Below are positions 3,748-25,740 of a stretch of DNA of 64,000 bases, piece after piece. The notes below the pieces were generated by a model. It was not told the DNA's origin, did not search any database, and was given only the letters and a program-made list of their open reading frames with translations. Both the position numbers and the translations under genes were made by a program. The DNA comes from Euglena gracilis (lineage: Eukaryota), in assembly GCA_039621445.1 (NCBI GenBank), contig CP154954.1, positions 27,927,735 to 27,991,734 on the forward strand. Direction: 5' to 3'. The stretch's first letter is position 1. Each line of letters starts with the position of its first letter.

Positions 3748-6700
3748 ATGGGCCGCCGCGCCCCGGTCCTGCTCCTCGCGGCGCTCGCCCTCACGGCGGC
3801 GGCGCTGTGGCACACTGTGGGCCGGGCCCCGGCGCTCAGGGCCGGATGGGAATCCCGGAAACCCCGTGAGTGGTGGGTGGGGGGCCGCGGCCTCCTCGTT
3901 CCGCCCTGCCCGGGCTACAGCGGCTCGTGACGGGCCCCACCGCCCCCCTGGCCCCGCTGGCGGTGGCGGTGGTGGAGGAGCACCACCACGCCGTGCGCTA
4001 CTGGGTGCGGCACGCCACCCGGCCCACGGCCGAGGGGTGGATGATGGGTGTTCTTTCTTTCTGTTGGGCTGCAAGGTTGGTAAGGGGATATTTGGGAAGC
4101 CATGTTGTGCGGGGTCCTGACCAGCCCCCCCCCCCCCGTGGGTAAGGTGGTGGGGGGAGGGTCCAGACCCCTCTTGATGTTGGGAGGGGATGTCCTGTGC
4201 TTGGTGTCCAGCCCGTTGACCGTCCACAGAACCGAAAGTTTCCCCGGTCACTTACTGTTTTGTGGTAGGAAGGGGTCTGGACCCCCCTCCGTTTTGGGGG
4301 GTCCAGACCCCCCCCCCCCAAGGGCTTCCCATGCATCCCTGGAGAGGGTTCTCAAAATCCATGTATGGTTTTCAACAGCTGTCGTAACATATGGGGCAGT
4401 GAGTTCAGAGTACATGGTGAATTGAATCCTTGGCAGGGGTTATGTCCTTGAAACGGTGATATATGTATACACAAACACTGTTCAACTCACACTCGCACTT
4501 GTTTGCACGTGCGTATACCATATGCATAAGATATGCATTTTGGACATTGGACGTTGTGCATTTGAGTTGTCATACAGCCAGGCTTTGGAATGATTTGCTG
4601 TGACAACGGCGACTACCGTTCAGTCATTCTTGCATCCCTCGCCCACGACGGTGTTGCACATTGATGCTCACTCCGACCTCGGCCTTCCCAGCGACATCAC
4701 TGGTGTGGCCGCCAGCGACGCCATTCTTTGCCGCAAAGAAGTGAAGGGTCGAAAAAAGCGTTGGATAAAGTATTTCTGTCAGTCGATGAATTCATAAAAG
4801 TCACATTCAAGAGAAGACACAGGAATGATTCTTTTGTGCGAGTAAGTGGTGAGTTCGTTGTATCCAGAGCACGATTCATAAAATGTGAAAACAACCCCGG
4901 CTTCAGCAGCCTTGAACCAATGGCTCCATGGGGGGGGAGTAGTTGAACAGGTGGGGAGAGGGGTTTCTGGAAATCGTTGCGTTGCGTTGATTCCAATCCT
5001 ACTCAAGGATTGGGATTAAAGTTAGGTTTATTTGGTCCAGAGACTGAGTGTCAGAATTTCGCCGTGTGGCCAAAATTATGGCCTAAATTAGGCCAAAGTT
5101 CATGCCCACCCATTCCAACAAACATGCCCAACAAACGTGCCCAACAAACACCCATTCCAACAAACACCCCCTGTTTGGGCTACATCTTTGGTCACCACAA
5201 GTGGAGTTTTGCTTCTATCGAACCTCTGTCTAATGTGCACCTGTTCCGACCGCCACTCATGTCGCTTTGAAATTTGTTAGATATAGCAGGTGAGGATGCA
5301 AACGTGTTTTTTTTGTTTTCTTCCGGCGATTTTTGGATTTTAAGAAACTTTGTGTCTTTTTTCTTTTTCGGGTGTGTTTTCCCCCCAAAAAATTTCGATT
5401 TTGCTGGGAAATCTTTTCCACTTGGGAATTCCACATTTTGCACCCGATTTCCCTGGAGGCCAAACTTTTTGTCAAAATTTTGCCATTTTTGAATTTTTTT
5501 TGCCAACAAATTGCATAATTTTGGAATCAGCATGTTCCCAAGATCTAATTCAGCCCACACTGTCTGCCTACCTGGAAATCCCCCCCCCCCCCGAATGCAT
5601 GTGGTTTTTTTTTTACTTTTGAACCGAAATGATTCCCGCCATGTGAATCCCAAGAATCCCAAGGTGTCCCAAGCTGTTCTTGAATAATCACCCCGCTGAT
5701 ACTTCATGGGTTCCCCTCAATGTTTGGGTGGCCTGAGAAAAGGTTGAACGGTGGAGGAGGTTTACGACTTTCTGTAAGCATGTTTCAAAATAAGTTTGCG
5801 GAAAACTGTAAATGTGAGCTTGGTTTACAGGCACCATCAACAAGCACTGCCCCTGTCTCATTCCTGAATGAGGCCCACACATTGTTCACTCCCCCCTGCA
5901 GTTGGGAGGAGCGGTGAGTTCCATGGGCAGTTCTTCTTTTTTAATTCTCAAATGATCATCGGTCAGAAAAATTTTGTAAAAGAAATTTTGTAAAAAATAA
6001 GGATCATCTGTTCTAGATTCAAACCACTTTTCACCGTGGGGGATCGGACGAGGCACGTCAGGGATTTGCCTCAAGCTGAAAAGGGGCAAAGAACAAACTG
6101 GCTTTTGCAGTTGCGATAGATTAATTACCTGAAATTCCCTGGGGTGAGTCCGAACTTGTGTTTTCCCTCTCCTCCTCTAGGTCCCAGGCAACCGGAAGTT
6201 ATGTAGACTCGGCGAGTGTGGTCCGCTGTATTTCCAGTCCATGCACCCAGAAACCGAGTTGAAATGATATCCACTCCCCCCAAGGCACCCTAGCGCACCC
6301 TAACCCCCCCCCCCACACAGAAAACACTAGTTGTATGCCACATGAACAAGTTACTGGGATAAGAAGATCACATCATCAAAAGAGCAATAATTAGAAAGCG
6401 AAAATTAAAAAACACAGCTTCTGGTGGTAAAATTGCTACATGGAGTTAACATCCTGCGATACAAATCTGCTCCAATCCAGTGATTAGGTGGAAAGGGAGA
6501 GTGTTCAAGTTTGAAATGAGGAATCATATGCATTTTTAATTTATGATTTTTCTCAAATTTGCTTCAAATTGGGAAAACGGCCCGCAAAATGCGGACCGTC
6601 CTAATTGCGGACACCCCCTAATGGGTGCGCACTCCCAGGGGGTCCGAAACTTCCTCCCTAAAAACGCGCACCCCCCAGCTTGATTGTACTGCAGTTTTTT

Positions 6701-25740: not shown

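Follow-up and report, generated by a model that had tools for sequence, protein, structure and literature searches.

Nonconventional introns of euglenids lack GT/GC-AG borders, yet are removed from messenger RNA (mRNA). At stake here are their origin and the reason for the 3-nt and 5-nt spacers at their ends, which we examined in a 64-kb window of Euglena gracilis contig CP154954.1 (the window being the whole stretch of DNA analysed). The published splicing code, 5'-N3CDG-/-CH'GN5-6|R, comes from experiments in which natural and synthetic introns were knocked into an exon of E. gracilis; in these knock-ins the 5' spacer is strictly 3 nt and the 3' spacer is 5 nt, with one extra nucleotide tolerated (Nomura et al. 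2025, PMC12501133). The same paper finds the strict CDG/CH'G pattern in 61.2%, leaves 'slidable' introns, 69.1% of the nonconventional ones, out of its motif analysis, puts nonconventional introns at 71.8% of all introns in E. agilis and suggests that the splicing machinery mitigates transposon insertions. An origin from MITEs (miniature inverted-repeat transposable elements) was proposed in 2014 (Milanowski et al., PMC3935182), and a 2024 review describes repeats resembling target-site duplications (TSDs) as frequent at the junctions and places terminal inverted repeats (TIRs) at +4..+6 and -8..-6 (PMC11282704). Intron 4 of gapC in E. agilis ACOI 323 is a nonconventional, strain-specific recent gain, absent in other strains, with eight-nucleotide direct repeats at its junctions that were attributed to double-strand-break repair (Milanowski et al. 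2016, PMC4770533).

Outside the euglenids, the introners of Micromonas and Aureococcus (Huff et al. 2016, as described in PMC11282704) are non-autonomous transposons with TIRs and TSDs that act as introns, and their splicing takes out the element with one TSD copy and so restores the exon. These are spliceosomal, with one splice site in the element and the other made in the 3-nt TSD, whereas the removal seen here looks non-spliceosomal, is measured from a helix and splits an 8-bp TSD into 3+5. The introns of Amoebophrya and Fritillaria borealis likewise have non-GT-AG borders, TIRs and short TSDs at their junctions, but the TSDs are 3-5 nt, the spliceosome is adapted, and a fixed 3+5 ruler is not reported in the review's account of them (PMC11282704).

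The window is a euglenid-type nuclear locus. Its examined interval holds two genes on the plus strand, a UPF0489-like gene (gene 1, ~3749-13565) and a KRI1-like gene (gene 2, 13949 to past 25919), each split by many nonconventional introns. These introns share with those described earlier the cut geometry, the terminal pairing, the junction purines and the presence of GT-AG introns in the same gene; in those accounts, as far as their main texts go, slidable introns are set aside and the spacer sum is unrelated to a TSD, whereas here it is matched to the 8-bp TSDs of resident MITEs (PMC12501133, PMC3935182). A MITE origin, TSD-like junction repeats and splicing as mitigation of insertions are all in print, and what we propose is a refinement of that published hypothesis, not a new kind of system. 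A statement that the 3+5 spacer sum equals the TSD length was not found in the literature, supplements aside. Our best and most coherent reading is that insertion of MITEs with an 8-bp TSD, erased by 3+5 splicing, is probably the source of at least some introns at this locus.

The cuts were defined by RNA in gene 2. RNA joints cover positions 11400-31399, and 15 of the 466 joints were listed; they derive from contigs X1 and X3 and from the raw reads X21, with the DNA run X20 as a control. The RNA type of X1-X19 is presumed, and X21 is recorded as raw RNA reads and was included by species label. Among the 15 listed joints 11 are non-GT-AG, 2 are GT..AG and 2 are chimeric or paralogous. Both the non-GT-AG and the GT..AG joints occur in the X21 reads and the X1/X3 contigs, and no contig of the DNA run has them. 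Two further non-GT-AG joints, 17833>17934 and 25322>25643, follow from contig piece coordinates; when they are added the exon lengths sum exactly to the contig span (1000 = 1000) and the open reading frame (ORF) stays open. All 13 joints, 11 listed and 2 derived, thus show removal from mRNA across borders that are not GT/GC-AG.

In 12 of these 13 introns, the exon is followed by three nucleotides, a triplet that opens a helix, the partner helix closed by its triplet, five nucleotides and the next exon, a spacer sum of 8. Four of the 12 fits need the cut to be slid within the ambiguity of the junction, three of them by 1, 2 and 2 nt, and the one at 25324-25643 by 1 nt (TGG is shared); the ambiguity of this last joint was read from the sequence, that of the others being the bases shared by both sides of the joint. 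The paired triplets extend beyond CAG/CTG to CAA/GTG, CAC/GTG, CGA/TCG, CAG/ATG and CGG/CCG. A strict CDG/CH'G pair is present in 6/12, or in 8/12 when C..G triplets may have a middle base that does not pair. Purines occupy the first position of the intron and of the downstream exon in all 18 introns whose flanks were tabulated, and the exon starting at 25126, outside this set, begins with C. The original prediction had placed most non-GT-AG cuts 3 nt before a CAG-type triplet and 5 (sometimes 6) nt after its paired triplet, which the RNA-defined introns bear out; this part of the finding is correct yet already known from the published code (PMC12501133).

The prediction had also named MITEs with CA...TG termini and 8-bp TSDs, three perfect and one at 7/8, and an unbiased scan arrives at the same elements. 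We compared every pair of positions 40-3000 nt apart and kept the 1988 pairs with 14-nt terminal complementarity of at least 12/14; left out were pairs of low complexity, those with an inverted repeat that extends further outward, and the palindromic array at 32.4-35.3 kb. For flanking direct repeats of 5-13 nt, these pairs contain three perfect 8-mers, with 0.04 expected, and no perfect repeat of any other length. The three are MITEs 20985-21387, 29408-29703 and 53154-53762, which with 19808-19984 make up the four predicted. All have CA...TG termini, and three have CAGGCTT in common. Position 6 of all four TSDs is a purine, where the published code demands R, and MITE 20985-21387 is splice-competent by the code as it stands (N3, CAG...CTG, N5, then G). 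Summed DNA word depth, which is a sign of very high repetition and not a copy number, is ~200,000-400,000 in the bins of MITEs 20985 (~400,000) and 29408 vs ~35-50 in single-copy bins.

Two introns, 10458-10907 and 24559-24726, are recognisable from their sequence as such elements, by family membership; their splicing would be at the sites that the 3+5 rule predicts. In blastn of each intron against the window, intron 10458-10907 has blocks in common with 36.7 and 37.2 kb, and the other introns have no repeat matches except simple repeats. Motif searches and alignment place it in a dispersed family, of which the window holds three more copies, with internal blocks that are conserved and ...CGCCCTG as the common right terminus. 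The intron aligns along its length with all three (28930-29835, 36644-37033 and 37148-37439) at 59-65% pairwise identity. The left terminus of the family, CAGGGCG, stands at +4 of the intron and the right terminus at -6, exact to the base. With gene 2 as training set, the coding score is -67 within this intron and +10 for the 23 codons that follow, and the 14 codons that precede are neutral. The intron is 450 nt long and has no in-frame stop, a 192-codon frame being open through 10416-10994; as its length is a multiple of three, retention would leave the protein untruncated. Between two of the copies lie 106 GC-rich nucleotides (37039-37144) that fit exactly in register, N5 after 37033 and N3 before 37148, and could be a short exon between two repeat-derived introns.

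Intron 24559-24726 starts with CAGGCTTCTTTCTAA and ends with AAATAAAGAAGCCTG, termini that belong also to MITE 19808 and to another right end, at 20254. With its CAGGCTTCTTT termini it matches MITE 19808 in 14 of the 16 terminal nucleotides at the left and in the last 11 nt at the right, and the likeness is confined to the termini. Its joint is absent among the 15 listed and is compatible with an open ORF and with the 314 nt of exon sequence that contig X3 (record 14) requires between 23646 and 25126, where the exon chain was read by eye from landmarks.

A recent insertion removed in this way would leave a residual duplication at a fixed register, the last 5 exon nucleotides plus the first 3 intron nucleotides against the last 5 intron nucleotides plus the first 3 exon nucleotides. 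We compared these flanks in 18 introns, with left and right flanks permuted among the introns as a baseline (306 pairs) in which position-specific composition, including the position-6 purine, is preserved. Permuted pairs match on average at 2.81/8; P(>=5) is 0.105, P(>=6) is 0.016 and P(>=7) is 0 of 306 pairs. The values given originally, 7/8 at introns 4028-4646 and 10458-10907, 6/8 at 3834-3913 and 5/8 at 24559-24726 and 10977-11647, were all reproduced, the introns themselves being predicted from sequence. With binomial p = 0.35, at least 7/8 has a probability of ~0.004 per intron, and two cases among ~30 introns would be unexpected. The register is specific: the 18 introns give 67/144 matches at shift 0 vs 31-50 at shifts -4 to +4, and three identities of at least 6/8 at shift 0 vs none at the shifted registers.

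These observations suggest the following course of events. In the pre-mRNA the intron ends would pair, and of the two cuts one falls 3 nt ahead of the 5' triplet and the other 5 nt past its 3' partner. Resident, very abundant MITEs with CA...TG inverted termini (CAGGCTT...AAGCCTG and CAGGGCG...CGCCCTG) duplicate 8 bp of their target. When such an element lands in an exon, the existing nonconventional splicing would take out the element and exactly one copy of the duplication, and since 3+5=8 the exon and its original reading frame would be restored exactly. Introns 10458-10907 and 24559-24726, and probably 4028-4646 and 3834-3913, would have arisen by MITE insertion of this kind. Older introns would have lost the flank identity and kept the geometry, because the machinery needs it. 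What makes the reading plausible is one intron that is a whole family member with 7/8 flanks, another that carries MITE termini, the 8-bp TSD, and no other, of the CA...TG MITEs, and the published 8-nt case; we infer from these that 3+5=8 has a causal basis and is no coincidence. The claim of an RNA-level eraser held up in part: a spacer sum of 8 in 12/13 introns, the 8-bp TSDs and the two element-like introns speak for it, and the flanks of the RNA-verified introns do not.

Several observations weigh against the origin by MITE insertion. The flank excess found over 18 introns does not extend to the 12 RNA-verified 3+5 introns, which at 34/96 matches equal the permuted 35% baseline and carry no trace of a duplication. 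The entire excess comes from six predicted introns (33/48) that had been chosen in the original prediction, and those at 6-7/8 all lie in the gene 1 stretch 3829-11399, outside RNA coverage. The 5/8 values are weak because a match of this size is at the ~10% chance level; only the one 6/8 and the two 7/8 stand out. A dynamic-programming gene model that combined the splicing code with codon scores recovered ~5/14, then 7/14, of the RNA-defined introns of the KRI1-like gene and was therefore set aside for gene 1, which leaves no unbiased denominator of introns there. Beside weak inverted repeats across the window, 7/8 flanks occur at the chance rate (6 vs 4.4 expected at 11/14 complementarity or better; 19 vs 20.9 at 10/14 or better), and an element with a 10-bp flanking repeat is also present; the 8-bp TSD therefore holds for the CA...TG MITEs and does not extend to all elements of the window. 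The CAGGGCG family is old, with 59-65% pairwise identity, and its non-intron copies lack a TSD (1/8). The perfect-TSD MITE 20985-21387 sits in an RNA-defined intron, and no young insertion in an exon was seen. The geometry has exceptions too: RNA-defined intron 17834-17933 is unambiguously 3+4, predicted intron 23939-24481 lacks an adjacent terminal helix in the 3+5 register, and the donor of intron 24828-25125 (24827/24828), as located from the 314-nt sum, seems to lie within the CAG of the helix CAGGGGGC/GGCCCCTG.

In a rival reading the 3+5 spacing, a property of the splicing machinery, has an unrelated origin and the CA...TG MITEs are simply the commonest DNA transposons of this genome, gathering in and near introns as any repeat does; some old introns would then contain MITEs over their full length, whether by chance or because of a later insertion. 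The baseline flanks of the RNA-verified introns and the chance rate of 7/8 at weak inverted repeats agree with such a coincidence, as does the position of both MITEs of the KRI1-like gene within larger introns (19808 in 18618-20311 and 20985 in 20713-21464). We nevertheless consider it unlikely. The repeat-family termini meet +4 and -6 of intron 10458 to the base and its flanks match at 7/8, two 7/8 and one 6/8 stand against per-pair chances of 0 of 306 and 0.016, and an 8-nt repeat has been published for a strain-specific new intron (PMC4770533). Milanowski et al. 2016, who saw that repeat, proposed that junction repeats arise when staggered double-strand breaks are repaired with filler DNA (PMC4770533), and hairpin ends could have been selected later by the splicing system. 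Intron 23939-24481, with its 6-7-nt junction repeat and no adjoining terminal inverted repeats, would fit such an origin. Break repair leaves unexplained, however, both the exact 8-bp repeats at non-exonic elements with 14-19-nt inverted termini and the membership of intron 10458 in a dispersed family, and as the source of the junction repeats we regard it as very improbable. A third alternative accepts the link between splicing and transposon and changes the transposon: it could be Merlin, a P superfamily member or another type with 8-bp TSDs, or the MITEs could have been selected to carry the splicing code, an introner-like adaptation. This we judge unlikely.

The window MITEs resemble MITEs of the hAT superfamily in their 8-bp TSD, a hAT trait, and in termini starting with CAG. 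They differ in having no linked transposase, in the departure of CAGGCTT from the terminal consensus at position 5 and in a weakly matched target consensus. The hAT terminal consensus is 5'-YARNG. CAGGG of the intron 10458 family fits it, which favours hAT; a misfit at position 5 is seen in CAGGC, the start of three MITEs and of intron 24559, and in CATAC of MITE 53154. In the hAT target consensus, A is expected at position 7, as found in 3/4 of the MITE TSDs, and T at position 2, found in only 1/4. A transposase domain was found in none of the 10 largest of the window's 114 ORFs (>=140 aa), so hAT membership is only a candidate; the superfamily involved is presumed, and the hAT label for the CA...TG MITEs is unproven. 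No literature joining Euglena or its MITEs with hAT was found, supplements aside, and the draft genome paper contains no word starting with 'transpos'. Two Merlin families with 8-bp TSDs are described in E. gracilis (PMC8101967). Merlin elements have an 8-9-bp TSD, with which the window MITEs agree, but their termini start with GG, while all four window MITEs begin with CA (PMC8101967).

A bolder form of the MITE-insertion reading is that the 3-nt and 5-nt spacers exist because their sum equals the 8-bp staggered cut of a single, highly successful group of families of CA...TG-ended DNA transposons, the machinery being a dedicated RNA-level eraser of such insertions. We advance this tentatively, as a possibility to which we give a little less than even weight. 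If true, it would make exon insertions of CA...TG elements neutral and would account for most Euglena introns being nonconventional and most of these 'slidable'. The pyrimidine/purine consensus at both junctions would be positions 5 and 6 of one duplicated target, and the circular intron RNA, once excised, would mirror in RNA the element together with one TSD copy. Should the equality of spacer sum and TSD be causal, intron gain would be a one-step event, in which splicing removes an insertion precisely and immediately; the published splicing code would gain an evolutionary explanation, and the 69% 'slidable' introns omitted from the published analysis would become the most informative ones. 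The features discussed are collected in Table 1.

Table 1. Introns, MITEs and repeat copies of the locus. Spaces set the spacers apart from the paired ends; L8 and R8 are the left and right 8-nt flanks; both, bases shared by the two sides of a joint.
Feature	Position	Strand	Ends and register	RNA support or basis	Flanks or TSD
Nonconventional intron, KRI1-like gene	14105..14851	+	GGC CAGGGCCTGG...CCAGGCCTTG GGGGG, 3+5	joint 14104>14852, X21 7 reads	3/8
Nonconventional intron	14927..15280	+	AAC CAGGGGG...CCCCCTG TCAGC, 3+5, cut unambiguous	joint 14926>15281, both=0	4/8
Nonconventional intron	15401..15727	+	CAA/GTG, 3+5	joint 15400>15728	2/8
Nonconventional intron	15883..16406	+	CAGCGCCCACC...GGTGGGCGGTG, 3+5	joint 15882>16407	2/8
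Conventional GT..AG intron	16550..17329	+	cut +2	joint 16549>17330	
Nonconventional intron	17476..17800	+	3+5 after slide 1	joint 17474>17800, both=1	2/8
Nonconventional intron, 100 nt	17834..17933	+	AAC CAGTGCCCCCC...GGGGGGCCCTG CGCC, 3+4	contig piece 17934-18095 + 34-nt side	
Nonconventional intron	18096..18541	+	CAC/GTG, 3+5	joint 18095>18542	2/8
Conventional GT..AG intron; contains MITE 19808-19984 and further right end at 20254	18618..20311	+		joint 18617>20312	
Nonconventional intron	20447..20638	+	CAG/ATG, 3+5	joint 20446>20639	3/8
Nonconventional intron, encloses MITE 20985-21387	20713..21464	+	CGA/TCG, 3+5	joint 20712>21465	3/8
Nonconventional intron	21579..22456	+	GTG CAGGGCC...CACCCTG GCAGG, unambiguous	joint 21578>22457, both=0	2/8
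Nonconventional intron	22595..23058	+	3+5 after slide 2	joint 22592>23057, both=3	3/8
Nonconventional intron	23193..23647	+	3+5 after slide 2	joint 23190>23646, both=4	4/8
Nonconventional intron	25324..25643	+	GGG CGGGGCTG...CAGCCCCG CTGAT, CGG/CCG, 3+5 after slide 1	contig pieces 25126-25322, 25643-25919	4/8
Predicted nonconventional intron, UPF0489-like gene	3834..3913 (80 nt)	+			L8 CCGGCGCT, R8 CCCGGGCT, 6/8
Predicted nonconventional intron, gene 1	4028..4646	+	GGC CGAGGGG...CCCTCG CCCAC		L8 CCCACGGC, R8 CCCACGAC, 7/8
Predicted nonconventional intron, whole dispersed-repeat copy	10458..10907	+	CAGGGCGTTGC...GCAGCGCCCTG		L8 GTCCTACC, R8 GTCCTGCC, 7/8
Predicted nonconventional intron, includes (CA)157 array	10977..11647	+	CATGCCATTGC...GCAGTGGCATG		5/8
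Predicted nonconventional intron	23736..23892	+	CAT/ATG, 3+5	upstream exon 23646-23735, Kri1_C match	3/8
Predicted intron	23939..24481	+	6-7-nt junction repeat (C)TGCCAG	read by eye, absent among 15 listed joints	
Predicted nonconventional intron, KRI1-like gene	24559..24726	+	CAGGCTTCTTTCT...AAAGAAGCCTG		L8 ATCGGGTC, R8 ACGGGGAC, 5/8
Intron	24828..25125	+	acceptor 5 nt past CTG	acceptor RNA-defined (exon start 25126, contig piece 25126-25322)	
MITE	20985..21387	.	17-bp perfect TIR CAGGCTTTTGCTTAAGG		perfect 8-bp TSD GCTGCGGT at 20977-20984 and 21388-21395
MITE, nested in CAGGGCG-family copy	29408..29703	.	CAGGCTTGTGCTTA...TAAGCACAAGCATG		perfect 8-bp TSD TTCTCAAC
MITE	53154..53762	.	CATACTTGCAGTTAGTGCG...CGCACTAACTACAAGTGTG		perfect 8-bp TSD GGCTGAAG
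MITE	19808..19984	.	CAGGCTTCTTTTTAA...TTAAAAAGAAGCCTG		TSD GGCCCGAC/GGCCCAAC, 7/8
Copy of intron 10458 repeat family	36644..37033	+	right end ...GCGACGCCCTG; left end degenerate		1/8
Copy of intron 10458 repeat family	37148..37439	+	CAGGGCTGGGC...CCAACGCCCTG		1/8
Copy of intron 10458 repeat family, interrupted by MITE 29408-29703	28930..29835	+	left-truncated		

The identities of the two genes come from Pfam searches run on single exons, which gave weak matches only. In gene 1 the exon downstream of intron 4028-4646 matches UPF0489 (positions 29-66, E 0.013), and removal of intron 3834-3913 joins a signal-peptide-like ORF in frame to the next ORF. In gene 2 exon 23646-23735 matches Kri1_C (positions 9-29, ending at residue 30, E 0.029), and the conceptual product has an ORF that is open over all RNA joints. 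A protein search with the product of gene 1's last exon, as derived from the transcript, returned 868 candidates, none at E <= 0.001, and an Rfam search gave no match. Summed RNA depth in the bin 11400-12066 corresponds to ~229 nt of exon at depth 61, which is compatible with exons at ~11648-11745 and 11925-12045. The C-terminal module of gene 1 is apparently present as a tandem duplicate, at 10908-11745 and 11925-13565; the first copy reads 'HPDRLHDQLAAFVQYLRQNV' and then 'GFLVVCVGFSS', the second 'HSSDRLAVAQQLQALEWLLQNV' and then 'PVLVTVARS'. The (CA)157 array of intron 10977-11647 occupies 11075-11388, and a (TG)22 array lies slightly upstream, at 10313-10356.

Two RNA contig joints, 15392>21562 (with 24 foreign letters) and 16495>25158, connect distant points through short sides of 20-22 nt, and long loose RNA ends occur at 15373, 21582 and 25180. 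These joints have the look of transcripts from a paralogue, or from a different gene with short acidic or lysine-rich stretches in common, and not of splicing at this locus. Intron 21579-22456 includes highly repeated DNA, with a summed DNA word depth of ~195,000 in the bin 21405-22071, and part of intron 14105-14851 (bin 14068-14734) reaches ~67,000. At 14246 all reads of the DNA run give C vs G in the window; similar 'AGCCTTAGT' strings are found at ~11606 and ~19620.

A metagenome scan with the 17-nt TIR gave 71 loci with one match each, and blastn matched the MITE over at most 33 nt; these are chance matches and not copies. The element with the 10-bp flanking repeat spans 1028 bp (26574-27601) and is a transposon of another type than the 8-bp MITEs. 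Its inverted arms are long and have imperfect tips (74 nt and 49 nt, each at 96%), and it is flanked by a perfect direct repeat, GTCCAAGGTG, at 26564-26573 and 27602-27611, in a bin of depth ~350,000. A large foldback-like structure extends over 32539-35136. Its 279-nt inverted arms (95%) are arrays of a 43-bp palindromic unit, and its core (33043-34746) consists of 71/88/142-bp satellite repeats with strong GC skew.

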